Part shown: in pieces, positions 1-18,466 of the stretch
How positions within the stretch are numbered: position 1 is the first letter of the stretch
Layout of the letters: every line of letters begins with the position of its first letter
IMG/VR virus record: IMGVR_UViG_3300032030_000052
From: an uncultured virus (IMG/VR IMGVR_UViG_3300032030_000052)
Lineage: Duplodnaviria > Heunggongvirae > Uroviricota > Caudoviricetes
DNA length: 21,155 nucleotides
Reading direction: 5' to 3' (one strand)
Notes under the pieces: generated by a model
Seen by the model: only the letters and a program-made list of their open reading frames with translations
Told to the model about the DNA's origin: nothing
Database searches by the model: none
Translations under genes and position numbers: made by a program

Positions 1-432
1 GACCCAGCCTTCAGATTTCTCATGCTTAAGACGCTTAACCTCAACTTCGTTCTTCTGTCTCTCGATATCCAACCGCTCTCGTTCGATAGCGAGCCGCTCT
101 TTCTCGATTTCGTCCCGTGCCTTTTCGGCATCGACCTTGTTTTGATCGATATCGGCACGGCGCTTATCAAGCTCCAAGCGATCGCTGTCGAGTTTCAAAC
201 GATCCTCTTCGAGACGAATCTTTGCTTCATTGAGCTCTTTTTCGTCTTTAGCAGCATCTGCTTTTGCGTCAGCATCGACGTCCGTTACGTAATGTGTAAC
301 TCTCTCCTTGTAGAGTTTCGCAAGTCCTTCGATGGCCCGGGCATATTCCGGTTTCTCCGGATCGAGGTTTTTGATCTTCAATACCTCCCGTTTGATTTCC
401 TCATCCATTACGTCAGTAAGATCAACCATCAT
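1..432 (-). CDS. Hypothetical coiled-coil phage protein (partial; runs off the window start; absent from the ORF track)
   Basis: Hand translation from ATG at 432 after RBS GAAAGGAG gives MMVDLTDVMDEEIKREVLKIKNLDPEKPEYARAIEGLAKLYKERV...RLAIERERLDIERQKNEVEVKRLKHEKSEGWV, open to base 1, with E/K/R-rich heptads. Confidence 0.85.
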   Translation of the reverse strand, partial: MMVDLTDVMDEEIKREVLKIKNLDPEKPEYARAIEGLAKLYKERVTHYVTDVDADAKADAAKDEKELNEAKIRLEEDRLKLDSDRLELDKRRADIDQNKVDAEKARDEIEKERLAIERERLDIERQKNEVEVKRLKHEKSEGWV

Positions 433-474
433 TGCCTTTTTTCTCCTTTCGAAAATTTAGTGAGCTTTCGCTCC

Positions 475-498
475 ATTATAGCGTACGTTATTCTCGCG
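475..498 (-). promoter_or_regulatory. Class I repeated motif copy 1 (CGCG-N14-TATAAT)
   Basis: Minus strand CGCG AGAATAACGTACGC TATAAT GG, followed at once by the hairpin GAGC-GAAA-GCTC and then the RBS of CDS 1..432. Confidence 0.75.
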
Positions 499-718
499 TG
501 ATGGGTGTGAGATCTACCTTCAGCAAGATCTCGTCCTGTCCAAGGATGTATTGGACTGGGATTCCGTCCGACAGCTCCATGAACAAATAGGGCTCGCCTG
601 TGGAGTTGTCCATACGAAGCTTACCGACTCGCCTATGCTTGTGGCTGCCGGTTAAGAACGCTCCGACACACGATCCGCCAAGGACAAAACCGATCACGAA
701 AAACAGAATCTTAACCAT
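488..718 (-). CDS. Small protein with N-terminal hydrophobic/transmembrane segment (76 aa)
   Basis: RBS AAAGGAGGTG (728-737) 9 nt before ATG 718; MVKILFFVIGFVLGGSCVGAFLT is hydrophobic. Confidence 0.8.
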   Translation of the reverse strand: MVKILFFVIGFVLGGSCVGAFLTGSHKHRRVGKLRMDNSTGEPYLFMELSDGIPVQYILGQDEILLKVDLTPITRE

Positions 719-740
719 AGGATATATCACCTCCTTTACA

Positions 741-770
741 ATTCTACCATGATTTTTGGGTTGCGTCGTG
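741..770 (-). promoter_or_regulatory. Class II promoter candidate (CACGA-N4-ACCC-N8-TGGTAGAAT; extended -10)
   Basis: TGnTAGAAT extended -10 upstream of an RBS; layout identical to 2782..2811. Confidence 0.6.
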
Positions 771-780
771 ATGACTTTAG

Positions 781-811
781 AAAAAGGAAAGAGACCCCGT
801 TACAGGGTCTC
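781..811 (-). terminator. Intrinsic terminator
   Basis: Minus strand GAGACCC-TGTAACG-GGGTCTC then TTTCCTTTTT; the stop codon of 800..1042 lies in the loop. Confidence 0.8.
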
Positions 812-1042
812 GATACCTTTCTTGTAGTCTCTTAATGATTGCTTTGCTCGAAGATACATGAGTTTTGTGTCGATGATTTGCTCTGTATGATGGAGAGAAC
901 GCAGTAACAACGACACAGCGTATGCCGAAACACCATAGTTTACTGATCTAAGCGCTTCGTTTCGCTCTTCGTCGATTTGTCTCTTCTCCATGTTTAATCT
1001 GATCTCTTCGCAAATATCTTTGATCTCCTTCGTGGTTTTCAT
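800..1042 (-). CDS. Hypothetical protein (80 aa, helical/charged)
   Basis: ATG preceded by GGGAGGTGG RBS; flanked by a class I motif and a terminator. Confidence 0.8.
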   Translation of the reverse strand: MKTTKEIKDICEEIRLNMEKRQIDEERNEALRSVNYGVSAYAVSLLLRSLHHTEQIIDTKLMYLRAKQSLRDYKKGIETL

Positions 1043-1057
1043 ATAAGACCACCTCCC

Positions 1058-1081
1058 ATTACAGAGGTTGTAGATTATGTG
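1058..1081 (-). promoter_or_regulatory. Class I repeated motif copy 2 (CACA-N14-TGTAAT)
   Basis: Minus strand CACA TAATCTACAACCTC TGTAAT GGGAGGTGG; nearly identical to 1690..1713. Confidence 0.7.
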
Positions 1082-1108
1082 AAAAGGAAAGAGACTCCGC
1101 AGAGCCTC
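1082..1108 (-). terminator. Intrinsic terminator
   Basis: Minus strand GAGGCTC-TGCG-GAGTCTC (one G.U pair) then TTTCCTTTT. Confidence 0.75.
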
Positions 1109-1121
1109 AGTCCATTTTTTG

Positions 1122-1325
1122 TTATGCTATTTTGTATTCGTATTTAACTTCGAATGGGATGTCTTCTGATGTCACAACAACATCGCTCTTTAATTCATCA
1201 AGCAGGAAAATGAAATCCAAGATATATTCGGCGGCGTCTTCGTCCGTATCGAACGATTTCACCCAGTCATATATCGGAACATCTTTTCCTTCGGTTTTTG
1301 CGAAAGCGACAAAATTGTACAACAT
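1122..1325 (-). CDS. Small acidic hypothetical protein (67 aa)
   Basis: RBS GAAAGGAGGG before ATG 1325 (MLYNFVAF...). The longer ORF-track start crosses a terminator and is unlikely. Confidence 0.75.
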   Translation of the reverse strand: MLYNFVAFAKTEGKDVPIYDWVKSFDTDEDAAEYILDFIFLLDELKSDVVVTSEDIPFEVKYEYKIA

Positions 1326-1341
1326 ATTTATCCCTCCTTTC

Positions 1342-1365
1342 ATAATGGAAGGAGCAAATATCGCG
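1342..1365 (-). promoter_or_regulatory. Class I repeated motif copy 3 (CGCG-N14-CATTAT)
   Basis: Minus strand CGCG ATATTTGCTCCTTC CATTAT GAAAGGAGGG. Confidence 0.75.
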
Positions 1366-1366
1366 T

Positions 1367-1395
1367 AAAAAGGAAAGAGACTCCGTAGAGCCTCT
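1367..1395 (-). terminator. Intrinsic terminator
   Basis: Minus strand AGAGGCTC-TACG-GAGTCTCT then TTCCTTTTT; near-copy of 1082..1108. Confidence 0.75.
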
Positions 1396-1402
1396 CGCCT
1401 AT

Positions 1403-1675
1403 TCAGAAATAAAATCCACATGTATCATACAATAATTTTTCGATACGTAACTTGAGCATCGGATCTCTTTCTGCCAATCCATCGAGAACTGCGCAAATCG
1501 CAATGCAAGTACACTTCGTAATTGGCGTGCGCCCACTTTCCATGTTGTTTATGGACTGTCTGGTAACACCAATCAGATTGCCAAATTGCTCTGCGCTAAG
1601 ATTTGCGTATCCTCTGATTTCTTGCAGTCGATCCTTAAGTAAGTCATGTACGCTTTCGTTATATGGTAGTAACAT
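1403..1675 (-). CDS. XRE/Cro-C1-type helix-turn-helix DNA-binding protein (90 aa)
   Basis: Motif RLQEIRGYANLSAEQFGNLIGVTRQSINNMESGRT is a typical HTH_3 signature; RBS GGGAGGTGG before ATG 1675. Confidence 0.9.
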   Translation of the reverse strand: MLLPYNESVHDLLKDRLQEIRGYANLSAEQFGNLIGVTRQSINNMESGRTPITKCTCIAICAVLDGLAERDPMLKLRIEKLLYDTCGFYF

Positions 1676-1689
1676 ATAGACCACCTCCC

Positions 1690-1713
1690 ATTACATAGGT
1701 TGCAGATTATGCG
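1690..1713 (-). promoter_or_regulatory. Class I repeated motif copy 4 (CGCA-N14-TGTAAT)
   Basis: Minus strand CGCA TAATCTGCAACCTA TGTAAT GGGAGGTGG. Confidence 0.75.
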
Positions 1714-1745
1714 AAAAGAAGAGGCGCTGTTAAGCAACCTCTTCT
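1714..1745 (-). terminator. Probable intrinsic terminator
   Basis: Minus strand AGAAGAGG...CCTCTTCT stem with the 1730..1954 stop codon in the loop, then a short T run abutting the next motif. Confidence 0.6.
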
Positions 1746-1954
1746 ATAGACAGCGAATACTCAACCTCATTGATAACAAAGACGATCGCCACCATGATAT
1801 TGTCGTCGTTATACTGCGGATGATATCCGTCGGGATCATAATGATAAAAATATAATTCATCAAATCGATCTCGCATGAAATCTTCCGCAGCATCTATGGT
1901 CTGAAACCCACCATATGATGTCTCCGTCTTTGTATCGAATACCGTGTAAGTCAT
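1730..1954 (-). CDS. Small acidic hypothetical protein (74 aa)
   Basis: RBS AGAAAGGAGGG before ATG 1954; sits in a motif/terminator cassette. Confidence 0.8.
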   Translation of the reverse strand: MTYTVFDTKTETSYGGFQTIDAAEDFMRDRFDELYFYHYDPDGYHPQYNDDNIMVAIVFVINEVEYSLSIEEVA

Positions 1955-1970
1955 AGTATCCCTCCTTTCT

Positions 1971-1994
1971 ATAATGGAAGGAGTTATTCTCGCG
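1971..1994 (-). promoter_or_regulatory. Class I repeated motif copy 5 (CGCG-N14-CATTAT)
   Basis: Minus strand CGCG AGAATAACTCCTTC CATTAT AGAAAGGAGGG; overlaps the stop codon of 1984..2376. Confidence 0.75.
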
Positions 1995-2376
1995 CACGAT
2001 GAAGTAAATAGAAGAAGAGTCTGTAAATGTTATAGTAAGCGTCACGACCCATCGGCAGAACCTTCTTAGCGGACATGGAATCGTAACTGTAACCTCTCGT
2101 TACACCATACATAAGATCTTCATAAATCTCCGGATGGTCTTTCGTTGCCTCATCCATAGCGTTCATCACTATCTCGATTCGATGGCTCAGCGTTGCTCTC
2201 TTGATCGCTTCTTCCTCTGTCGGCTCACGGTTCTCACGAGTAGCGAGACCATCGAGCCAACTTCTCTGCTTCTGCCAATCCCAGAACTGGAAGCAGAAGT
2301 ACTTGAGCTCGTAGTAGCGATTCTTCGGCATCCAGTATTGGCTCTTCTTTGACACCACGGCTTGTGTTGCTTTCAT
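1984..2376 (-). CDS. Putative phage transcriptional regulator (RinA/ArpU-like, C-terminal sigma-region-4-like HTH)
   Basis: 130 aa; N-terminal RYYELKYFCFQF, central amphipathic helix, C-terminal GVTRGYSYD...GRDAYYNIYRLFFYLL resembling RinA/ArpU-type activators; RBS GAAAGGAG. Confidence 0.55.
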   Translation of the reverse strand: MKATQAVVSKKSQYWMPKNRYYELKYFCFQFWDWQKQRSWLDGLATRENREPTEEEAIKRATLSHRIEIVMNAMDEATKDHPEIYEDLMYGVTRGYSYDSMSAKKVLPMGRDAYYNIYRLFFYLLHRARE

Positions 2377-2406
2377 ATAAAAGCTCCTTTCAAAAGAAAA
2401 AATATT

Positions 2407-2500
2407 AAGAAGATGTTAGAACGGTTCACTCTCCAGTATATGGAACGGGAATTCGTTTCCGATATTCCCCGTTTATAAGTGAGCTCATCATAGTCTTCTC
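2407..2500 (-). ncRNA. Candidate ~94-nt multi-stem RNA / structured leader
   Basis: Closing stem GAGAAGA/UCUUCUU, stem UCACUU/GAGUGA, hairpin AACGGGGAAU-A-UCG-GAAA-CGA-AUUCCCGUU and small hairpin CCA-UAUAC-UGG. It begins at the G right after class I motif copy 6 and is followed by a U-rich run. Confidence 0.5.
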
Positions 2501-2759
2501 ATAATAAGGTTTGTAAATTTCGCGAACCTGTCCATACATACCCCGTATCCTCATACAGTAATTTTGGTGAAATGTAATAGCTTATCCTTCCTTTCCTTGA
2601 ATCCATCTCCTTTACATCGGTTATCAGTTTTCCGTTACGGGTAGCTTTCCCGATCGGTAACCATCCTGATATTATCCCGGCTCGAACCCATGATGCATCT
2701 CTTCCGTAAACCTTTGCTACGACAGCTATCGGAACTGACCCGACTGCCAAACCATTCAT
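2499..2759 (-). CDS. Excisionase-like small DNA-binding protein (86 aa)
   Basis: Divergent from the integrase; VPIAVVAKVYGRDASWVRAGIISGWLPIG...YYISPKLL fits a winged-helix/Xis-like pattern; RBS AAGGAGGTG before ATG 2759. Confidence 0.6.
   Translation of the reverse strand: MNGLAVGSVPIAVVAKVYGRDASWVRAGIISGWLPIGKATRNGKLITDVKEMDSRKGRISYYISPKLLYEDTGYVWTGSRNLQTLL
2501..2524 (-). promoter_or_regulatory. Class I repeated motif copy 6 (CGCG-N14-TATTAT)
   Basis: Minus strand CGCG AAATTTACAAACCT TATTAT GAG, embedded in the last codons of 2499..2759. Confidence 0.7.
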
Positions 2760-2781
2760 AGTAATCACCTCCTTGGATGTC

Positions 2782-2811
2782 ATTATACCACATCAAGCGG
2801 GTCGTTTCGTG
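2782..2811 (-). promoter_or_regulatory. Class II promoter candidate (CACGA-N4-ACCC-N8-TGGTATAAT)
   Basis: Perfect extended -10 TGnTATAAT upstream of the xis-like RBS; no TTGACA at the -35 position. Confidence 0.65.
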
Positions 2812-2850
2812 CTGAATTATGTCGTCCGTAAAAATATTTGTGTAGGAGTC

Positions 2851-2879
2851 TTGACATTCACACACCATAGTGATATAAT
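2851..2879 (+). promoter_or_regulatory. Consensus sigma-A promoter of the integrase
   Basis: TTGACA (2851-2856), 17-nt spacer, TATAAT (2874-2879) with extended TG at 2871-2872; RBS AAAGGAGGT at 2890-2898. Confidence 0.9.
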
Positions 2880-2904
2880 ACGGTGTAGGAAAGGAGGTGT
2901 AGGA

Positions 2905-4068
2905 ATGCTTATAAAGTGTCCGGAATGTGACTTACAGGTCAGCGATAAAGCATTAGAATGTCCTCATTGTGGTTATCCTATGGTTTCGGATGATAAAAGA
3001 AAAAGGCGCCATCGAACAAATCGTCGAAAGCGTCTTCCAAATGGTTTTGGTCAAATATCTGAAATCAAAGGCAAAGGTCTTCGTAAGCCGTTCAGAGCCA
3101 TGGTGACGGTCAGCAAAACTGATACCGGAAGACCAATCTGTAAACTCTTGAAACCAGAATCCTATTTTGAAACTTACAATGATGCATACTCAGCTCTGGT
3201 CGAATACAATAGGAATCCGTATGATCTTTCTAATGATATCACGATGTCGGAGCTTTTCGATAGATGGTCTGAAAACCACTTCAAGAAGCTCAAGTCGATC
3301 GATAGCGCTAAGAATATAAGATGCGCGTGGGTTCACTGTGCTCCTCTTTATGAAATGCGAGTAAAAGAAGTTAGAGTTCGCCATATGAAAGAAATGATCG
3401 AGCAGTCTCCAACTTCTAATGGCAATAAGACACTCATGAAGATGATCTTGAATATGATGATGGATTACGCAGTAGAATACGAGTTAGTTGACCACAACTA
3501 CGCTAGAGAATTTAAGATAGAAAAGGTCGATAAGAGCAAGACCGTTGGAACAGGAGCTCACGATACCATCTCTGATGAAGAACTTACCGTCTTGTGGTCT
3601 CACTCGGGTGAAAGCATGTGGATTGACATGATGCTCATACAGTGCTATGGCGGATGGCGTCCTATAGAACTCTGTCAGATTCGTAAAGAGGATGTCGATA
3701 TTTCTATCGGATGCATTACAGGTGGCTCAAAGACTGAAGCTGGTCGTCATCGTCAGGTTCCAATCCATGACAAGATACTTGACATAGTGAAGCGATATCT
3801 AAACCATGACTCCTCAGAATTCCTCTTTGGAGAGTTGACTTACGAGCAATACCGATACGCTTTCCACAACGAACTCGAAAGACTCGGATTATCAGACCAT
3901 ACGCCTCATGACTGTCGTGTACGATTCGTAACCGCAGCTAAGAACTGTGGTATGGACGAGTATGCTATCAAGAGGATCGTGGGACATGTTATAGGGGATC
4001 TGACAGAACGAGTCTACACCAAGAGAGACTTCGGATGGCTCAAATCAGAGATGCAAAAACTAAGATGA
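2905..4068 (+). CDS. int: Tyrosine recombinase/integrase with N-terminal zinc ribbon (387 aa)
   Basis: Catalytic set R (GWRPIEL), K (GSKT), HxxR (HDCR), H (IVGH), Y (VYT); N-terminal CPEC...CPHC; RLPNGFGQI arm-binding-like segment; start ATG 2905 after the RBS. Confidence 0.95.
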   Translation: MLIKCPECDLQVSDKALECPHCGYPMVSDDKRKRRHRTNRRKRLPNGFGQISEIKGKGLRKPFRAMVTVSKTDTGRPICKLLKPESYFETYNDAYSALVEYNRNPYDLSNDITMSELFDRWSENHFKKLKSIDSAKNIRCAWVHCAPLYEMRVKEVRVRHMKEMIEQSPTSNGNKTLMKMILNMMMDYAVEYELVDHNYAREFKIEKVDKSKTVGTGAHDTISDEELTVLWSHSGESMWIDMMLIQCYGGWRPIELCQIRKEDVDISIGCITGGSKTEAGRHRQVPIHDKILDIVKRYLNHDSSEFLFGELTYEQYRYAFHNELERLGLSDHTPHDCRVRFVTAAKNCGMDEYAIKRIVGHVIGDLTERVYTKRDFGWLKSEMQKLR

Positions 4069-4070
4069 GG

Positions 4071-4251
4071 TGTAGGAATAGTGTATGAATAAAGCCGTTA
4101 AGAGAGCGTTTTGCTACCCTTAACGGCTTCTTCATATACGTATTTACGTGCTTTTAGAGGCTGTTCAATCCTCCATAGACATATCCCAGTTATTCAGGAC
4201 AGTACGTATTTACGTTGTTTTGCGCATGACTTGTAGGAATAATGTAGGAGT
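4071..4251. other. Putative attP region with arm-type direct repeats
   Basis: Pairs of TGTAGGAAT-like 9-mers at 11-bp spacing on both sides (4071, 4082; 4232, 4243), and a 13-bp direct repeat TACGTATTTACGT at 4137 and 4203, in the non-coding gap just downstream of int. Confidence 0.65.
4081..4139. terminator. Long hairpin between convergent genes (probable terminator)
   Basis: AAGCCGTTAAG (4092-4102) / CTTAACGGCTT (4119-4129) perfect inverted repeat, extended by GTGTATGAA / TTCATATAC. Confidence 0.6.
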
Positions 4252-4685
4252 TATCTACCTTCCTCAAGATCCATGATGAAGCGCTTAAACTTCATACGGG
4301 TTTCTTCGTCCTTAGCGCGACCCATCAGCTCTCTGAGCTCTTCAGCCATGCCATTGTCACGAGACCGTCTCATAGCATAGGAATCGTAGTCGTCACGGGA
4401 GAACTGACCCATGGCGTTACGACGCTGTGCCATAGAACGATCGTCATAGGACTGGTCGTCGAAAGAGCGGTTACCATACATAAACGTAGGCATCGGATAG
4501 TGACCCGACTTGCCTTCGTAACCGCTTTCTTCCATGGCAATGATAGTGGAGATGCTCTTGAGGCTGTGGGTGATAAGATCGATGGTCTTCAGGTCGCTAA
4601 CATCAGCGATTCGACCCTTGTCCCTTGCCTCATCAAGCTCTTTGCACAGCATTTTCTTGATATCGTAGTAAGTCTGCATGCTCAT
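4251..4685 (-). CDS. Hypothetical protein (144 aa): helical N- and C-termini with a low-complexity Y/D/R/S linker
   Basis: RBS AGAAAGGAG; last gene of the six-gene cluster; contains RRNAMGQFSR and SYDD-like repeats. Confidence 0.85.
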   Translation of the reverse strand: MSMQTYYDIKKMLCKELDEARDKGRIADVSDLKTIDLITHSLKSISTIIAMEESGYEGKSGHYPMPTFMYGNRSFDDQSYDDRSMAQRRNAMGQFSRDDYDSYAMRRSRDNGMAEELRELMGRAKDEETRMKFKRFIMDLEEGR

Positions 4686-4704
4686 TTTGAATTTTGCTCC
4701 TTTC

Positions 4705-5187
4705 TTATCTTATTCTGCGAACGCCCTCGTAGTCGAACTTCATATTGCCGTTGACTACGGTTACGGGCTGGGTGCTAAGGTTTACGAGTGCGATGCTGTC
4801 ACAACCGCAGATACTCGGAACACTTACAACGATTCCTGTACCGATGTTCTCTGCCACTTCGACAGCAGCCGGAGTAGCGAGCATTACGCTATCGGTATCA
4901 ATGACGCCATCGACAACTAGACCAAATCTGATCTCTTCAACAGTACCATCAGTCGGAATCAAGACGTTCAGATGTGCCTCAACACCATAATCGGTAGAAT
5001 AGAGCTTACGGCAGCCGCAACCGCAGTTACAGCTGTTATTTCTGGGAGCATTCGATGCAAGCAGAAATGTACCGGCGCCCTTCTTAAAGATATAGCCCTG
5101 ATTGCAGGGGCACGGAGCGTCGAGAAATGCTACCGGCTGGTTCGGTTGTACAGTCTGGTTTGCAATGATACTGTAATCAGCAGCCAT
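4705..5187 (-). CDS. Cys-rich predicted beta-sandwich protein (160 aa; BclA-CTD/C1q-like by pattern)
   Basis: Alternating beta-strand pattern (QTVQPNQPVAF, GTFLL, YGVEAHLNV, FGLVVDG, IALVNLS), CPC and CNCGCGC motifs; RBS AAGGCGGTG. Confidence 0.8.
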   Translation of the reverse strand: MAADYSIIANQTVQPNQPVAFLDAPCPCNQGYIFKKGAGTFLLASNAPRNNSCNCGCGCRKLYSTDYGVEAHLNVLIPTDGTVEEIRFGLVVDGVIDTDSVMLATPAAVEVAENIGTGIVVSVPSICGCDSIALVNLSTQPVTVVNGNMKFDYEGVRRIR

Positions 5188-5201
5188 CCGTAATCACCGC
5201 C

Positions 5202-6086
5202 TTAATTGAAGCCATTGCAGCCGCAGTTAGAGCCGTTGGCGACATTTACAGGGCAGGTGAAGATCGGCTGAGAACCATAAACCGGAGTGGTGCCCACGGG
5301 GCAAGTAGAAAGGCGAGAATAGATGCGATCCACGATGTCATCGGACTGAGCGACACGAGAAGCCTGCTCAGTAGCGAGGTTAACCGCATTCTGGAGAGCA
5401 ATGTTCTCACGCCGTGCCTGATCGAGCTGAGACTTGACACCATCAAGCTCGATAGCGCACAGCTTGTCGATGATGGTCTGGTTACCACGACCGACGGCAT
5501 CAATGATGTCACGAGTGTTCTGATATGCAGCAGTTCTGGTAGCGCAGTTCTCGCTTGCCTCAGCATAGCGGATATCAGCAAGACCTGCCTGAACACCATT
5601 GAAGCCCTGCTGATTTGCTGTCTGCTCAGCGAAAGAGCGATTGAGATTTGCGATTTCGTTCGAGTAGAGCTGCTGAGAAAGTGCAGTCTGTGCACCGAAA
5701 ACAGAGTTGTTTACACCGTTAAATCCGTTTGCCATGCCAAGCTGCATATCGCCGCAGCAGTTGCAAAGCTGAGTAGACAGCGAGGAAATGCCGTCACGGA
5801 CGGAAGTCACGGAATCATGAAGCTGTGCATCTCGGAAACCGTCATTGATGTTCTGCGAGTTGTTGAGCCACGGATAAATGAAATCCATGCCCATCATGCC
5901 AGCGCCCATCATAGCGCCACCCATGCCGAAACCGCCAAAGCCGCCCCAGCCACCGCCGAGGACGAGCAGAAGCAGAATCCAAGCCCAGTCTCCACCGAAA
6001 CCGAAGCCGCCGTTACCGCCATAACCGCCACCGTACATCGGAGCGACAGGCATTACCATGTTGTTTGTTGCGTTTTCAGAGTTCAT
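5202..6086 (-). CDS. Gly-rich/hydrophobic N-terminus, coiled-coil, Cys-rich C-terminus protein (294 aa)
   Basis: RBS AGAAAGGA before ATG 6086 (MNSENAT...); GGYGGNGGFGFGGDWAWILLLLVLGGGWGG segment, LCNCC, heptad-like helices, terminal CGCNGFN. Confidence 0.85.
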   Translation of the reverse strand: MNSENATNNMVMPVAPMYGGGYGGNGGFGFGGDWAWILLLLVLGGGWGGFGGFGMGGAMMGAGMMGMDFIYPWLNNSQNINDGFRDAQLHDSVTSVRDGISSLSTQLCNCCGDMQLGMANGFNGVNNSVFGAQTALSQQLYSNEIANLNRSFAEQTANQQGFNGVQAGLADIRYAEASENCATRTAAYQNTRDIIDAVGRGNQTIIDKLCAIELDGVKSQLDQARRENIALQNAVNLATEQASRVAQSDDIVDRIYSRLSTCPVGTTPVYGSQPIFTCPVNVANGSNCGCNGFN

Positions 6087-6118
6087 AGTATTATCCTTTC
6101 TACGTTTGGTAGTGTATT

Positions 6119-6157
6119 TATATCCCATCGGCTTATGCGCACTCGCCGAAGAATATA
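6119..6157 (-). other. Intergenic RNA hairpin with palindromic loop
   Basis: Minus strand UAUAUUCUUCGGC-GAGUGCGCAUAA-GCCGAUGGGAUAUA: 13 bp with two G.U pairs and one bulge; the loop contains UGCGCA. Confidence 0.6.
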
Positions 6158-6195
6158 TGATAAAAATAGTAGTATGATGTTGTGGTGTGATGAAT

Positions 6196-6453
6196 TTATC
6201 TTCTACCCATGTTCTGCATCTGTTGCATCAGATAATTCTGAACCATGGGAAGACGATTCTGGTATATTGGACTGGATTGGAGAACCATCTGCATAAGAGC
6301 TTGCGGGTCGTTCTCCTTTCCTTGAGTCTGGAAACCCAGTTGCTGCATCCTTCTCAAGGCTTCCGTTCTTGGGTCTTGAGATTGCTGCTGATATTGCTGC
6401 TGAGGTTGCATCTGAGGGTTTCCACCGATGCTTTGATAGAGGTCACTTGCCAT
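6196..6453 (-). CDS. Small Gln/Met-rich protein (85 aa)
   Basis: RBS GAGGTG before ATG 6453 (MASDLYQ...); QPQQQYQQQSQ and DPQALMQMVLQS; overlaps the upstream gene end. Confidence 0.8.
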   Translation of the reverse strand: MASDLYQSIGGNPQMQPQQQYQQQSQDPRTEALRRMQQLGFQTQGKENDPQALMQMVLQSSPIYQNRLPMVQNYLMQQMQNMGRR

Positions 6454-6961
6454 GCTTCTGTTCACCTCTATTCTGGTTTTGGTTATTCTGTCTATTATTC
6501 GAGTTATTCTGCTGATTCTGGTTGTTCTGATAACTCTGGTTTGTTGTCTCGAAGCTCCTCATGATGCTTGCGATTCGGGCTTCAAGCTCTTCTCGAGTGA
6601 CAAATGCGGAAGTATCAATCGCAGGAGCCATCGGTTGAGGCTGCTGTGGTCTGGCTTCCGCATTTTCCCTCTCGTACCGGAATATCTCAAGCGGATACGG
6701 CATACCATTGGCATCCGTAGACTTGATTCCGAAGTTGTTCTCCTCAGTGTTGAAGAGGAATGCTTTCTGATTCGGTCCCATAGAGAAGGACTTCATGGCA
6801 GCGATACCCTGAACCCAAGCAATAATCAATCCATTTTGATTTCCCTGAGCAGGAGACGGAACAGTTCCGGGAATACCCATTCCAGTCATGTATCCCTGAG
6901 GTATGCCGTATTGAACTCCATAAGAGGAGCCGTAACCAGCCGGTAAGTACGGTACTGCCAT
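6443..6961 (-). CDS. Protein with a small central domain and Pro/Gln/Asn low-complexity tails (172 aa)
   Basis: TAATG coupling with the upstream gene, RBS GGAGGTG; core IIAWVQG...FGIKSTDANGMP; FVTREELE helix; N/Q-rich C-terminus. Confidence 0.85.
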   Translation of the reverse strand: MAVPYLPAGYGSSYGVQYGIPQGYMTGMGIPGTVPSPAQGNQNGLIIAWVQGIAAMKSFSMGPNQKAFLFNTEENNFGIKSTDANGMPYPLEIFRYERENAEARPQQPQPMAPAIDTSAFVTREELEARIASIMRSFETTNQSYQNNQNQQNNSNNRQNNQNQNRGEQKHGK

Positions 6962-7347
6962 TATCTATCACCTCCGTCCGAAGTCTTAGCATAATAGTAA
7001 AGCGGTGTGTCAGAAGATGAATCCCAAGAGTCGATGATATCACCGTTCACGACAGCTACCGCATGAGTACCGGTACCGACAATGTAAGTACCCTCTTTAT
7101 GAGAATTTGCGAAGTCAGAAAGCTTGTACGACTTGTTGTCGGGAAGATTGAACCTGCGATATCCAAGAGATTTCAGGTATTTCTCCCACGTCTTGTTATC
7201 GTCCCCGAAAGTGCATTCTTCATAACCCTCGACACAGAGGGAAAGATATACTCTTCTCCATGGGACGTTTTCAGCTATGGAAATTGCACGGATTACACAG
7301 TCGCCCGTGGTCTTTCCACAAGGATTTCCGTTGAATTGGATATACAT
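6961..7347 (-). CDS. Putative papain-like (C39/transglutaminase-like fold) Cys-His-Asp enzyme (128 aa)
   Basis: GDCVIRAISIA (Cys at helix start), GTHAVAVVNG (His at strand start), IIDSWDS (Asp) in the canonical order; RBS CAGGAG. Confidence 0.65.
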   Translation of the reverse strand: MYIQFNGNPCGKTTGDCVIRAISIAENVPWRRVYLSLCVEGYEECTFGDDNKTWEKYLKSLGYRRFNLPDNKSYKLSDFANSHKEGTYIVGTGTHAVAVVNGDIIDSWDSSSDTPLYYYAKTSDGGDR

Positions 7348-11881: not shown

Positions 11882-12553
11882 TCACCCCTCATCTTCAATC
11901 GCAAAGTAGCCATCAGTGAGCCATCGATGACCGTTGATCGTGACAGCTTTGAACTCATTTGCATAACTGTCATTGTAGGGCATGGCGCCTGCATGATCAG
12001 TATAACTGAGAGCATCAAATGCGGCATTCGTAAACATTGGCATTACGAGGCGCTGCATTCTCGTATTACCGGCAACCGTGATAGTCCTGAGCGGAGAGAT
12101 ATCGCCCCATGTGATACAAGCAAGATCGGTTCCTTCTGTCTGACCACTAGACGAGCCGACGGGGTAAATGAACGTGAGCGCTCCGAGATTGTTACGAACG
12201 ATCCGGATATGACCACCGTAATTGCTAATCGTTGTATAAATGGACAAACCATTCGGGCAACCGGCGGCATTTACAATTTGTCTGCCGTTATTAGATGCGT
12301 TAACAGTCTTAAGGCTGCTCGACGCATATGCTGCCCATCGACCGTGATGCTGATTACTATCAACGACTTCTTCAATTCTGAAAAGAACATTTCCGTCCTT
12401 ATCAAGAATCTTAAGAACAGCCATGTTGGTATAACTATTGAATTCCGAATCCTCAAGATCTACTTCGACTGTTTCATCTTTTAGTAAACCACAGGACTCG
12501 ATGAAAGTCTTAAGTTTCGGCATAGAATTATTTATTTCTGCTGTTCTGATCAC
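11882..12553 (-). CDS. Hypothetical tail-region protein (223 aa), paralogue of 12778..13449
   Basis: Shared motifs CxNG..IYT, IRIV, LxCIxWGDIxP, PMxTN, SYT...GxMPY, LxDGYFAIE; GTG start with SD GAGGAGGTG. Confidence 0.85.
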   Translation of the reverse strand: MIRTAEINNSMPKLKTFIESCGLLKDETVEVDLEDSEFNSYTNMAVLKILDKDGNVLFRIEEVVDSNQHHGRWAAYASSSLKTVNASNNGRQIVNAAGCPNGLSIYTTISNYGGHIRIVRNNLGALTFIYPVGSSSGQTEGTDLACITWGDISPLRTITVAGNTRMQRLVMPMFTNAAFDALSYTDHAGAMPYNDSYANEFKAVTINGHRWLTDGYFAIEDEG

Positions 12554-12765
12554 AGGCTCACCTCCTCATCCTCAACGGGCGCGATAATAGCACAATCGGT
12601 AAGTCCCCAAGCGAAATCACAAGCAGGAGCAATATCAAGATCACGTCTTACAGTAGGACCCGCTTGGCTGACCTTGTATAATGCATCCCAAATCGCCTGC
12701 TTAATTTCCGCTCCAGACTTGCTGTTGTCGATAACTGAGAGTTCAAGTGCAATATCTACTGCCAT
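12550..12765 (-). CDS. Small protein consisting mainly of the shared ~30-aa helical anchor module (71 aa)
   Basis: DIALELSVIDNSKSGAEIKQAIWDALYKVS matches the N-termini of 13462..14046 and 14056..15096; RBS GAGGT. Confidence 0.8.
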   Translation of the reverse strand: MAVDIALELSVIDNSKSGAEIKQAIWDALYKVSQAGPTVRRDLDIAPACDFAWGLTDCAIIAPVEDEEVSL

Positions 12766-12777
12766 TTTGATTACCTC

Positions 12778-13449
12778 TCAAGGTTCTTCCGAGTCTTCAA
12801 ACTCAATTGCAAAGTAACCGTCCGACAGATACTTCGTACCTGCAATATCGATCGCCTTCATCGCCGCGTCCTGTGTAGAATAAGGCATGAAACCCGATTT
12901 CATAGTGTACGAAACAACGTTAGCATCAGAATTTGTGAGCATCGGGACAACCATTGCATGCGTGTCATAACGGTTCGTAATGTCAATCTTATTGAACGGC
13001 TCGATGTCACCCCATGCGATACACTGAAGATCTTGTTTGAATCCTCTAGTGGTTGCTGACGGATAACCGCTAGATATCTGATAGCTGATAAACGCTATAC
13101 GGTTATCGTTTGTTTTTACGATTCGTATCGGCATTCCATGGTTGCTATCATAAGCATGCGTGTAGATCACAGCGCCATTGTCGCAAACATAACAATATGG
13201 GAAATATCCGTAATAACTGGAATCTCCTATCTTAGATTGGACATAACTTTCATTCGAGGCATAAGTCCGCCATCGAAAGTTTTTATCGTTCGTATACCTC
13301 TCACATTCAAAAAGTCTATGCCCATTGCTGTCGGTTATAGATAAAACGCCAGATTCGACACTGATAGTACAATCACTGAGAATCGGACACTCTTCGAGAG
13401 CTGTTTTTAGGTTGTCAATAACGCTGTTCACATAAAATCTTTTAAGCAT
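12778..13449 (-). CDS. Hypothetical tail-region protein (223 aa), paralogue of 11882..12553
   Basis: Full-length motif sharing with 11882..12553; RBS AAGGAGGG. Confidence 0.85.
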   Translation of the reverse strand: MLKRFYVNSVIDNLKTALEECPILSDCTISVESGVLSITDSNGHRLFECERYTNDKNFRWRTYASNESYVQSKIGDSSYYGYFPYCYVCDNGAVIYTHAYDSNHGMPIRIVKTNDNRIAFISYQISSGYPSATTRGFKQDLQCIAWGDIEPFNKIDITNRYDTHAMVVPMLTNSDANVVSYTMKSGFMPYSTQDAAMKAIDIAGTKYLSDGYFAIEFEDSEEP

Positions 13450-13461
13450 TCGATTCCCTCC

Positions 13462-14046
13462 TTACCAGTATTTGTAACGTTTTATCGTTACCGTAGCAGA
13501 TGTTACATCATCTAACGTAAGACTTGGCAAGCTACTACTTCGTCTAAAACCGAATCGAACATATGCAATGTCTGTCGGGATATTCGATACGATTGTTCCG
13601 GCTTTCCAACTCCATGGCTTGTAGGATGAACCACTTGTTGAAACCGCAGTACTGCTCTTCGATGACAAGAATGATTTACTTGCGTTGTAACAATAGAAGA
13701 ACCACTCTAGTGCAGCCGTCTGAGTGCTCACATAGATCTTCGCTTCGATGTTGATGTCAGGGCTTGTGATCGGAATATAATCAGTTGTACCGAGTTTGTT
13801 AATATCCTTCGGAGTAACAGATCCGGAACTGTCTGAAAAATCAGCTCGAACTAATCCATAATCAAATAGATCATACTCAACACCTTCAGTCGTATCATCG
13901 ATAGCTGGACCCATGGTGTAACGCTGGATTTCTTCTCCGCCTCTGTCTTGCGCTACTAAAGATAATGCATCTCGCACCGCACCTTTTACTGACTCACCGT
14001 ACTGATTGCTTCGGATGATCGCGAGCTGTTCAGAAATATCGGTCAT
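13462..14046 (-). CDS. Anchor module plus beta-rich (CBM-like) domain protein (194 aa)
   Basis: N-terminal DISEQLAIIRSNQYGESVKGAVRDALSLV; C-terminal TTDYIPI...FYCYNASKSFLS...PTDIAYVRFGF resembles the CBM-like module in 7671..9287. Confidence 0.8.
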   Translation of the reverse strand: MTDISEQLAIIRSNQYGESVKGAVRDALSLVAQDRGGEEIQRYTMGPAIDDTTEGVEYDLFDYGLVRADFSDSSGSVTPKDINKLGTTDYIPITSPDINIEAKIYVSTQTAALEWFFYCYNASKSFLSSKSSTAVSTSGSSYKPWSWKAGTIVSNIPTDIAYVRFGFRRSSSLPSLTLDDVTSATVTIKRYKYW

Positions 14047-14055
14047 GACGTCACC

Positions 14056-15096
14056 TCACGTTTCGATCATGAACGGACCTTCGATATAGAACGTCCGAGT
14101 TCCGAATTCGACAGTGCCTTCTCCAACATTTGTTAGCGCCACATAAGCCGAACGAGAGTAATCGTCAGAGCCCTCGCCTACAATTGGACCGAGTACAAGC
14201 GTATCCGTCTGATAATTCGGATTCTGATTCATCGTTGACGGGTAATTCGTCGTGCTCTCTACTGAGAATGACCGTATTTCACTTCTCGGATCAACAAAAT
14301 GAGGCATCTGAAGATAGCCACAATGGAACGAGACCATTAGTTTACCCTGAGATGATTGTACGAATGCCATATAAGCGTTTTCAATTGAACCCATTCTCAC
14401 AAGAATTGTTCTTTTTCCGACATATACGGATCTCGGGGTAATGATCGGAACTGACACCGCATCTGGTTCGGCAGGAATCTGATATGGATAACTCACGGCT
14501 TTCGTAATCTCAGACGGTGATGCTGTCGTATAGCAGTAAACCGAAATCTGATACCACCATTGTAAATTCGTACCGGTTCCGGAATATACGGCTGAAATCG
14601 TTACGAACGGAGTCTCATCGGATTCGAAATAGTAAAGCCGAAGCTCTCTTTCAGTCTCGCTGACCTCCTCATATTCGACCTTTCCGAAGATCGGAGACTC
14701 GCCGAATATTTCGCTCATAGATTGCAGCGGATCAGATTGATCGAGAGAATGGACATTGTCCGCATACGGAGTTCCACTGATCGGGGTTACGTTCACCTCT
14801 GTCGGGGTCAAACCAGCAGCGACATAATTCGTGCTTCCGATACTCTTGGACAACTTATAAAGTGCAGAATAGATCGCATCCTTTACGTCGGCACCCTTCG
14901 GCTCATTTTGAATTATTTGGAGTTCTGCTGATATGTCAGTAGTTCCAAAATCAATCGGAAATCCTTCGGCTGCTTCTTCAGCAAGCTCAAGTTCTGCACC
15001 GCTAAGTTTCGACAGTGCATCGTGAATCGGCATTCGAATGTCAACGCCATATCGATTCGCTTTGATCTCTTGAAGTTCTTTACTGATGTTTTCCAA
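14056..15096 (-). CDS. Minor tail/baseplate appendage protein with two anchor modules (~346 aa)
   Basis: Two copies of the anchor motif in the first ~90 aa, then a beta-rich domain. SD GAGGTG favours a TTG start at 15096 (the ORF track starts at GTG 15105). Confidence 0.8.
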   Translation of the reverse strand: MENISKELQEIKANRYGVDIRMPIHDALSKLSGAELELAEEAAEGFPIDFGTTDISAELQIIQNEPKGADVKDAIYSALYKLSKSIGSTNYVAAGLTPTEVNVTPISGTPYADNVHSLDQSDPLQSMSEIFGESPIFGKVEYEEVSETERELRLYYFESDETPFVTISAVYSGTGTNLQWWYQISVYCYTTASPSEITKAVSYPYQIPAEPDAVSVPIITPRSVYVGKRTILVRMGSIENAYMAFVQSSQGKLMVSFHCGYLQMPHFVDPRSEIRSFSVESTTNYPSTMNQNPNYQTDTLVLGPIVGEGSDDYSRSAYVALTNVGEGTVEFGTRTFYIEGPFMIET

Positions 15097-15106
15097 TGCA
15101 ATCACC

Positions 15107-17551: not shown

Positions 17552-18466
17552 TCAGAGCCTCCCTTGTCTGAAGTTTATAACCATTTTGATTTCCTGACTA
17601 GAATTATTCACTAATTCTATCGCGGTCCATCTTTCGACTGGAGCGCCTATGGAAATTGACGGATCATGTTTTATGCATTTGTCAACTGCGATTTGTTCAG
17701 ATGCGACAACGTAACTAGAATCGTCATCGGGAATGTTATCCACATTTGTCATCGCGTCAGTCTCGCTAATGAGGCTTGTGTACGTTTTAACAGATATCTT
17801 TTTCTCGGCAACATCTGTAGAAATATCGCCAGTTGCCGTGAGAATGATATCAGGTACGACCGGCATAAGACCGGCTGTGATTTTGTCGAAACAGAGTTTA
17901 CCAACTGTTCCGCTTGGAACAATCTTCTCATATACCTGCTCTCTGTCAACAATGTATCCGTTTATGAAATCAAACGGATTCCACAGCCAGTCCTCGCCAG
18001 ATGTAAACAACATCCTCTTGAACGGTTCAAACTCGTAGTCTATCGTAATAGAACAGAGTGATTTTTCGGATTGGAACTGGTTTACGGACAATCTGCCCTC
18101 ATAAAAATATGAAGGAGAATCAGTAAGTATCACTCTCTTGGTGAAGCCGTGAAGCTCATTCAAGATCGTATCGTACGCCGTATCCCAGTCCCAGCCTTCA
18201 TCAGAGGTATCAACATAAAATTCGAAGCTTCCACTTCTCATATTGTAAAGCGGATAACCGAGTAAAGAATCAGTCAGATCGATTGCACCATTCATACCGG
18301 GAACCTGAATGAGGTTCTTTTGAACTTCTGGAGGATTCACGATTGGAATGTTTTTCGGAACCAGATGCCAATCCTTCCAGCTATCGAGATAGTCTTCGGG
18401 ATTGTATTCGGTGTTTTTTGGATTCCCGATGAGAATCGAATGGACACCGCTGTAGTACATTTGCAT
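17552..18466 (-). CDS. Distal tail protein (Dit-like, 304 aa)
   Basis: Immediately after the tape measure; DSWKDWHL, PPEVQ..IQVPGMNGAIDLTDSL.G.P.Y..RSGSFEF, YEGRLSV, EPFK, WLWNPFDF. Confidence 0.88.
   Translation of the reverse strand: MQMYYSGVHSILIGNPKNTEYNPEDYLDSWKDWHLVPKNIPIVNPPEVQKNLIQVPGMNGAIDLTDSLLGYPLYNMRSGSFEFYVDTSDEGWDWDTAYDTILNELHGFTKRVILTDSPSYFYEGRLSVNQFQSEKSLCSITIDYEFEPFKRMLFTSGEDWLWNPFDFINGYIVDREQVYEKIVPSGTVGKLCFDKITAGLMPVVPDIILTATGDISTDVAEKKISVKTYTSLISETDAMTNVDNIPDDDSSYVVASEQIAVDKCIKHDPSISIGAPVERWTAIELVNNSSQEIKMVINFRQGRL

Follow-up and report, generated by a model that had tools for sequence, protein, structure and literature searches.

The stretch of DNA considered here, the 21,155-nt virus record IMGVR_UViG_3300032030_000052 (hereafter, the window), carries the lysis and tail end of a temperate siphovirus, followed by an integrase gene, a xis-like open reading frame (ORF; "xis" is our own label, given for the position beside the integrase), an ORF of 130 amino acids (aa), and a series of small, variable genes. 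Interspersed among the small genes are six copies of a 24-nt motif, CRCR-WNAWYWRC-N3-Y-N2-YRTWAT-R, that an earlier, sequence-only reading had proposed to be the promoter of a non-host-type RNA polymerase. We number the motif 1–24 and the purine that follows it as position 25. The coordinates of the motif copies, and of the genes and signals around them, are listed in Table 1.

Table 1. Motif copies, genes and regulatory signals in and around positions 1–4068 of the window; start sites (+1) are predictions.
Feature	Positions	Strand	Remarks
Motif copy 1	2500..2524	-	predicted +1 at G2500; overlaps the xis stop; followed by a folded leader of ~95 nt; 28.4 bits with the relatives-only matrix
Motif copy 2	1970..1994	-	predicted +1 at A1970 (or G1969); 16-nt leader to ATG 1954
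Motif copy 3	1689..1713	-	predicted +1 at G1689; 14-nt leader to ATG 1675
Motif copy 4	1341..1365	-	predicted +1 at G1341; 16-nt leader to ATG 1325
Motif copy 5	1057..1081	-	predicted +1 at G1057; 15-nt leader to ATG 1042
Motif copy 6	474..498	-	predicted +1 at G474; 5' hairpin 473-462; 42-nt leader to ATG 432
Hairpin and T run	1744-1718	-	directly upstream of copy 3; found by eye, absent from the scan's list
Terminator-like hairpin and T run	1375..1396	-	close upstream of copy 4; from the scan, z -4.0
Terminator-like hairpin and T run	1091..1108	-	close upstream of copy 5; from the scan, z -2.55
Terminator-like hairpin, same repeat family	791..811	-	no motif copy after it
Small variable genes behind copies	1730-1954, 1122-1325, 800-1042, 488-718, 1-432	-	
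HTH_3 (XRE-type) protein	1403..1675	-	behind copy 3
130-aa ORF	1984..2376	-	phrog_11237; FP_oengus gp03-like; candidate regulator, temperate gut branch only
xis-like ORF	2499..2759	-	phrog_6058; 71% to FP_oengus gp02, 90% to G050:C72
Host-type extended -10 (TG-n-TATAAT)	2782..2790	-	for the xis-like ORF; read from the sequence, absent from the promoter scan's list
Consensus sigma-70-type promoter, 12/12 with TG	2851..2879	+	in front of the integrase
Tyrosine integrase, N-terminal zinc ribbon	2905..4068	+	start at 2905 read from the Shine-Dalgarno sequence

The window contains exactly six exact matches to the pattern, all on the minus strand and all free of gaps, as originally described; 100 shuffles of the window gave a mean of 0.47 matches and a maximum of three. 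Allowing two mismatches adds no further copy anywhere in the 21,155 bases. Since the pattern was derived from these very sites, a matrix trained on relatives only provides a stronger check. It scores the six copies at 15.0–28.4 bits; in the rest of the window it finds one site at 16.5 bits (17888), with the next best at 4.1 bits. The 16.5-bit site (17864–17888, minus strand) lies within the Dit gene, is followed by C and not a purine, and probably arose by chance.

The finer features of the copies also stand. A7 and C12, the two invariant spacer bases of the sequence-only reading, are present in all six (in 700 sites from gut relatives, the frequencies are 0.81 for A7, 1.00 for C12 and 0.96 for A13). 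In four copies, where a Shine-Dalgarno (SD) sequence had been placed 0–2 nt after the AT-rich hexamer, we find an SD-like run beginning at 1–2 nt, with leaders of 14–16 nt. The RNA structures reported at the other two copies are likewise predicted by folding: (i) a GAGC-GAAA-GCUC hairpin at 462–473 on the minus strand (z −2.3 for 430–474), and (ii) a folded leader at ~2400–2500 on the minus strand, the end stem of which opens at G2500 (z −3.25). An nhmmer search among 161 related loci found no relative of the RNA starting at 2500. The 46-nt block at copy 5 is 89% identical to the block around copy 3.

Relatives were collected with the xis-like ORF; the 130-aa ORF as a query gave just one weak virus locus. 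Among named phages, Faecalibacterium phage FP_oengus comes nearest (xis 71%, integrase 46%, 130-aa ORF 37%), and the closest relative found is G050:C72, which is 79 kb in length and shares the gene order of the window (integrase 86%, xis 90%, lysin 91%, tape measure 56%). G050:C72 contains 24 motif sites on the minus strand, including, at 42832, a 25-mer identical to that of copy 2. It also has one on the plus strand: a strong antisense copy (77980) at the start of an HNH gene.

The motif recurs at the same spacing in relatives. The 80 virus loci picked by xis hold 593 sense matches (481 downstream and 112 upstream) and four antisense matches. Across 160 loci, 468 distinct sites occur at the exact gaps, and no one-base shift of a gap yields more than two. 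Motif copies lie on the coding strand both in related gut prophages and in phages of Arthrobacter, Streptomyces, Gordonia and Lactococcus. Sense sites of at least 12 bits, with the same spacing, number nine in Circum, nine in CapnMurica, 12 in Rima, 14 in Avazak, four in RavenPuff, 11 in Sporto and eight in D_HF5_2C. In Lactococcus 1706 the gut-trained matrix gives one site; 11 variant sites, all on one strand, are found with a variant pattern that was chosen after inspecting that genome. The lineage-wide consensus is CGC-N7-RCA-N5-YWTWAT-G-R-R, often preceded by a T run. This differs from the sigma-54 consensus, which has GG at −25/−24 and GC at −13/−12: of the two places before CGC, the first is T in a fraction of 0.71 and the second shows no bias, and position 11 is G in only 0.25.

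Where RNA would begin is a question on which a host-type and a phage-type promoter differ. In the part of PMC8407463 available to us, the housekeeping −10 element spans −12 to −7, and so a start by host sigma-A holoenzyme would fall near position 31. The sequence-only reading had instead put +1 at the purine directly after the hexamer. When the scan matrix omits position 25, that position is G in 0.97 of the 700 gut sites, and positions 26–28 are purines in 0.96–0.99. A pyrimidine-purine step occurs at 24/25 in 688 of the 700, and in 53 of 53 sites from actinophages; at positions 30–33 it occurs in 35–114 of the 700. A reading frame opens 8–20 nt after G25 in 216 of the gut sites (15 ± 3.5 when shuffled), and in these an SD match of at least 5 nt is kept by 188 for a start at 25, 41 for a start at 31, and 11 for a start at 32. 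The window provides an internal control: its host-type promoters leave 10 nt (integrase) and 7 nt (xis) before the SD, while four motif copies leave 1–2.

A second line of evidence comes from a tRNA-like RNA that directly follows a motif copy in 41 distinct cases, all outside the window. Its end helix opens at position 25 in 32 cases and at 26 in six, and outward stacking reaches position 24 in seven and 23 in one. Five or six pairs fall at positions 25–30 in 38 of the 41; 182 of the 225 pairs are Watson-Crick. A sigma-A start would cut most of the short-leader SDs and the tRNA-like end stem; these indirect tests favour, as +1, the purine directly after the AT tract, in line with the original placement.

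Other hallmarks of host promoters are sparse at the motif, except for the −10 bases at the actinophage sites and four window copies taken up below. Of the 700 gut sites, 262 have A as the second base of the hexamer, and 252 combine it with T sixth. A −35 TTGACA at 16–18 nt, with at least five of six bases matching, is found in 3/700 gut and 0/53 actinophage sites, and the TG of an extended −10 in 33/700 and 2/53, respectively.

Some RNA evidence exists for the window itself. It comes from a single sample with two RNA-library runs, listed as sheep gut metagenome and possibly the source of the window, and consists of contigs, which cannot show starts. Contigs identical to the window cover 1–252, 273–460, 827–1047, 1022–1330, 1126–1276, 2169–2319 and 2307–2467. 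The lack of contigs on 1331–2168 and 2520–4200 carries no weight; the X2 share is small, and DNA carry-over is possible. Several of the high ends lie 10–33 nt downstream of a motif copy, which fits either start model.

A candidate for the enzyme that reads the motif is found in the relatives. FP_oengus gp55, annotated as an RNA-dependent RNA polymerase, contains the sequence GADFDGD and belongs to phrog_4291. G050:C72 carries a 964-aa ORF with the same GADFDGD, ~40 kb downstream of xis; D539, D541, G542 and D543 of its product do not vary across 150 aligned homologs. Among solved structures, the PHROG 4291 polymerase has no relative by sequence. An AlphaFold model of the G050:C72 protein, built on a 75-sequence alignment (predicted local distance difference test, pLDDT, 87; predicted template modelling score, pTM, 0.80), matches QDE-1 (E 3.5e-8) and plant RDR2 in fold, as well as gp62/gp64 of Thermus phage (Foldseek E 5e-6 to 2e-5). 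In a second structure comparison RDR2 reached Z 15.4 (root-mean-square deviation 4.2, 376 aligned), another match Z 13.9, and Thermus gp64/gp62 Z 10.3–10.6; the global TM-scores of the fold matches are low, at 0.2–0.3. Pfam adds helix-turn-helix (HTH) and Sigma70_r4_2 matches. The PHROG 4291 protein is hence predicted, from model and motifs, to be a single-chain, two-barrel, YonO-like RNA polymerase with terminal HTH domains. The T7-type enzyme to which the motif had first been compared does not fit, because the co-occurring polymerase has DFDGD and matches two-barrel folds, not the right-hand fold.

The family is large (250 phage records by tblastn; 924 clusters at 50% identity, E below 1e-30). 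The start of the polymerase, HYG...RSGRYPWG, resembles the HYGVKGMKWG starts of several small head-module proteins (shared HxG...WG) and is disordered in the AlphaFold model. The shared segment is a possible capsid-loading tag; that the polymerase is packaged into the virion is a guess. A separate early-region protein of ~197 aa (G051:C1 296152–296436) matches positions 534–631 of the polymerase profile, and there are comparable places in G010, G012, G020, G025, G033, G034, G040 and G045. The Atlas gave no named family for the small protein encoded after the polymerase.

Motif and polymerase gene co-occur in two sets of records. The first consists of 50 records picked by xis (49 of the 80 xis loci, selected by the length of their contigs, plus MT835485), of which 43 match the polymerase; four of these matches (G012, G020, G025 and G045) are short ones, to another protein. 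Among the 25 records that are at least 90% complete, 23 contain the full polymerase gene; the exceptions are G031, cut by the contig end, and G043, in which the gene is truncated. The second set was picked by one exact match to the motif: 80 stretches listed out of at least 162, on 55 contigs, from which the five shortest were left out. Here, 36 of 50 records match the polymerase, and the full gene is present in 21 of 23 near-complete records (two of the near-complete records are also in the xis-picked set, and one is Circum). The exceptions, G112 (16 sites) and G090 (14 sites), have contigs that end between the helicase region and a small terminase-like gene, which is where the polymerase operon sits in relatives; a match in G090 is to the shared N-terminal tag and was not counted.

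The association also holds outside these sets. Three Faecalibacterium phages without the polymerase have 1, 0 and 0 motif sites. Five host genomes (23.4 Mb) together contain 61 exact matches, 56 of them inside the prophage that carries the polymerase; the five outside are at chance level, a reversed-pattern control giving four matches in the same genomes. All 30 further genomes have matches, and the 150 listed of 253 are mostly clustered on one contig and strand. Finally, a motif copy of at least 20 bits is located 876–1449 nt upstream of 37 of 39 polymerase ORFs (many of them near-duplicates), where it precedes an endonuclease-exonuclease-polymerase operon.

The sequence-only reading had left room for either a phage polymerase or a specificity factor encoded beyond the window. 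The polymerase is supported by this co-occurrence; the sigma factor is not, as no phage sigma factor was seen among the genes shared by the ten genomes compared with G050:C72. Common to all ten are the structural genes, the polymerase, an exonuclease, an endonuclease, a helicase, a primase-polymerase, an HNH protein and the small terminase-like ORF (labels follow the FP_oengus annotation or position), and, among the core proteins scanned against Pfam, the polymerase was the one with HTH matches. Two window genes might be considered as readers of the motif: the XRE-type HTH gene, which has no homolog in 160 related loci or 13 genomes, and the 130-aa ORF, the family of which is present in 135 of 160 gut loci and in none of eight named actinophage, lactococcal and oral phage genomes. 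Neither therefore fits as a shared reader. We also considered that loci with one site after xis use a different motif; this was rejected, since xis adjoins the polymerase operon there. In G004, G014 and G030 (L010, L020 and L027), the xis-like gene lies 2–3 kb before the polymerase operon; G004 has no primase-polymerase or helicase match although it is rated 90% complete. In the compact or decayed locus L155 (G062), a short primase-polymerase remnant is followed by a polymerase whose N-terminus is altered; the strong motif copy of this locus stands after the polymerase gene, not before it.

We propose, with a probability of roughly 80%, that the motif is the promoter of the lineage's PHROG 4291 two-barrel polymerase, with +1 at position 25. 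Counted from this predicted start, the CGC box would lie at −24 to −22, the RCA box at −14 to −12, and the AT-rich tract at −6 to −1. The polymerase's own HTH domains would read the two upstream boxes, the tract would be melted without host sigma, and the RNA would begin at the purine after the tract (nearly always G), its first three or four bases being purines. T7-type promoters are similarly gapless and of fixed length, with an AT tract directly before a G start and purine-rich first bases; they differ in that they serve an enzyme of unrelated fold, the motif here being three short boxes with free spacers.

Small early genes are preceded by groups of sites, many of which stand immediately behind terminator-like hairpins, and further sites recur through the replication region, so arranged that cassettes of terminator, promoter, SD and gene could give short, separate transcripts. 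The co-directional structural genes downstream of the polymerase operon are mostly without sites, though G050:C72 has four before the head module. The copy before the polymerase operon would provide positive feedback, with read-through supplying much of late transcription, and the first polymerase molecule could come either from host-driven read-through or from the virion. No clear host promoter was seen before the polymerase operon, where the best consensus match was 7–10 of 12, a figure that has no control. The phage of the window would carry its polymerase gene ~40 kb beyond the window's low end, as G050:C72 does. A far-reaching version of this scheme is possible but doubtful in our judgement: one sigma-free HTH two-barrel polymerase would use a single promoter class to run nearly the whole programme, comprising early genes, replication, its own gene and, through read-through, the late genes, in hosts from gut Clostridia to Streptomyces, would be carried in the virion by its N-terminal tag, and would form a self-driven switch that keeps the prophage silent until primed. 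If true, such host-independent transcription would help to explain how the lineage spans two phyla.

Several observations weigh against the promoter-polymerase assignment. The polymerase gene of the window's own phage is not seen: gp55 has no match within the window. G043 keeps eight motif sites with a truncated polymerase, and MT835485 has 18–22 sites with no polymerase in 70.6 kb (it also lacks a terminase and looks partial). In G043:C1 (~59082–59345), polymerase residues 1–97 stand directly beside a tape-measure match, a deletion or misassembly having removed the polymerase together with the head genes. Co-occurrence does not distinguish the polymerase from the rest of the core set, and, because the sites come from related phages, the counts are not independent. 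Ahead of the polymerase operon, Rima and CapnMurica have weak copies (3.8 and 11.5 bits, respectively), and Sporto has none of 9 bits or more; moreover, if the polymerase gene depends on itself, the synthesis of the first enzyme has to be explained. As for the start site, purine-rich starts can resemble an SD, and 43 of the 225 end-helix pairs at positions 25–30 are G-U. RNA contig 1022–1330 crosses copy 5 as well as the terminator before it. The hexamer has A second and T sixth, making a good housekeeping −10, in 52 of 53 actinophage sites and four of the six window copies, and actinobacterial promoters are described as lacking the −35 TTG anyway (PMC8407463, in the part available).

These last points lead to the rival to which we give most thought, albeit as an unlikely one: that the host sigma-A holoenzyme uses the AT tract as its −10 and the G as discriminator, while a phage factor binds the CGC and RCA boxes, analogous to the MotA-type middle promoters of T4. 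The factor could be the 130-aa ORF, with its weak feature likeness (0.91–0.92) to Q-antiterminator/DUF1492/DUF722 clusters, or the PHROG 4291 protein, if only its HTH domains take part. In favour of this rival, the TATAAT/TATAGT-like tract is intact in 52 of 53 actinophage sites and in 252 of 700 gut sites. The 130-aa family, on the other hand, is, as noted, confined to gut loci, and the catalytic aspartates of the PHROG 4291 protein are invariant in 150 homologs. The A at the second −10 place is the key base for melting by sigma-70, and its presence in 262 gut sites, together with the scarcity of extended −10 and −35 elements, argues against this rival, as do the absence of any spacing tolerance and the SDs and RNA stems that a start 7 nt on would cut; the window's own host-type promoters leave 7–10 nt before the SD. 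Given the A in the actinophage sites and four window copies, the host enzyme could nevertheless fire at some sites, and host and phage enzymes could share them.

The remaining explanations dispense with a promoter. Were the motif an RNA processing signal, with long transcripts cut just before G25, its strand specificity and the SDs and stems starting at G25 would be explained equally well; the contig across copy 5 and a nuclease pair beside the polymerase gene in all ten genomes would also fit. We consider this very improbable: terminator-like hairpins, two from the scan and one more read by eye, stand directly before three of the six copies, so that transcription has to begin anew there. Moreover, the spacing of the boxes, at about one helical turn, and the combination of AT tract and pyrimidine-purine step resemble those of DNA promoters. 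It is slightly less probable again that the repeats are boundaries for the exchange of gene cassettes by recombination, even though the window has two 46-nt blocks with 89% identity, 160 related loci lack homologs of three genes behind copies, and a 32-bp repeat of cluster AU phages (10.1101/2020.01.10.891226, seen in part) occupies a region like that with seven CapnMurica sites, its identity with the motif being inferred. Conservation is position-specific with free spacers, not overall identity, and holds across phyla; with lone copies before the conserved polymerase operon, exchange is more likely a by-product. That a lysogeny repressor, for example the HTH protein encoded at 1403–1675, uses the copies as its operators has hardly any probability in our view. 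The window does have an integrase and an XRE-type HTH gene; the motif, however, is not palindromic, is confined to one strand, and is present in Circum and Rima, phages without an integrase match, while the HTH gene lacks homologs in 160 loci or 13 genomes.

The polymerase and its lineage have been described before. In the part available to us, Koert et al. (10.1101/842583) present the PHROG 4291 protein as a putative RNA polymerase with DxDGD, HTH domains at both ends, and potential as a signature gene, in a group comprising FP_oengus, Lactococcus 1706, and actinophage clusters AM, AU, AW, BI, DJ, CC and EL. The words "promoter", "repeat", "intergenic" and "upstream" do not occur in the main text of that paper as available; the motif, the +1 and the link between motif and enzyme are absent from it, and polymerase activity is a prediction. 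For cluster AU Arthrobacter phages, the 32-bp repeat mentioned above is probably the same element, as judged from genome position; it was read as a recombination boundary, in a text that, as far as available, contains neither "promoter" nor "RNA polymerase" (10.1101/2020.01.10.891226). Our literature search returned no paper linking motif and PHROG 4291, although the genome papers of Lactococcus 1706 and Rhodococcus Pepy6/Poco6 may describe these repeats. No promoter reading of the motif appears in the available parts of PMC13432834, PMC7302621, PMC5513430, PMC5883640, PMC13313380, PMC11320949 or PMC5559632.

Private promoters of phage polymerases are already known, for two-barrel enzymes in Thermus phage P23-45 (10.1101/2022.12.01.518664, available in part). 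There, gp96 and gp64 each have multicopy motifs of their own, and in relatives motif and enzyme are found together, as here; the starts were mapped and two enzymes share the work, whereas here a single HTH-fused enzyme is proposed and the starts are predicted. The sequence-only reading had thought a phage polymerase unusual for a temperate siphovirus, which FP_oengus gp55 and YonO of the Bacillus prophage SPbeta (PMC5467207) contradict. Like the PHROG 4291 protein, YonO is a single-chain, two-barrel enzyme of ~100 kDa from a temperate phage (the comparison is by description, not by direct sequence comparison); it starts one late operon, whereas here 8–25 copies per genome lie mostly before early genes and the enzyme's own gene. 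The available part of PMC5467207 leaves open the promoter sequence of YonO and its need for factors. If our assignment is right, promoter finding without sigma by single-chain two-barrel polymerases would become testable with one purified protein, using a 25-base promoter that has a predicted start and is conserved in cultured phages; repeats earlier taken for recombination sites would be explained. Members of PHROG 4291 are often annotated just as HTH protein. The motif marks the lineage in metagenomes by a single match, and could yield an orthogonal expression system for Firmicutes and Actinobacteria.

The tRNA-like RNA used above as a start marker occurs, for example, at ~40276–40190 of G050:C72 (L220) and at 2934–3010 of FP_oengus. 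It has D and T arms, a variable arm whose length differs between cases and which stands where an anticodon arm would normally be, and an end helix of ~9–13 pairs that opens at G25 and leads to a U-rich tail; CCA was not seen. Rfam gives two tRNA matches in FP_oengus, the tRNA-like copy scoring 47.9 bits; at gathering score the G050 copy goes undetected, and neither the window nor L219/L220 gives a match. That the RNA is a decoy for anticodon nucleases is a guess.

Elsewhere in the window, two blocks of minus-strand ORFs drew our attention. Between the tail-fibre region and the integrase (4251–7347), there are six ORFs, four of which have unnamed PHROG matches; the block has no match in G050:C72. 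Between the tail and lysis genes (11882–15105), a paralogous pair (11882–12553 and 12778–13449) accompanies three ORFs (12550–12765, 13462–14046 and 14056–15105) with a short N-terminal likeness among them, and the window paralogs cross-match G050:C72.

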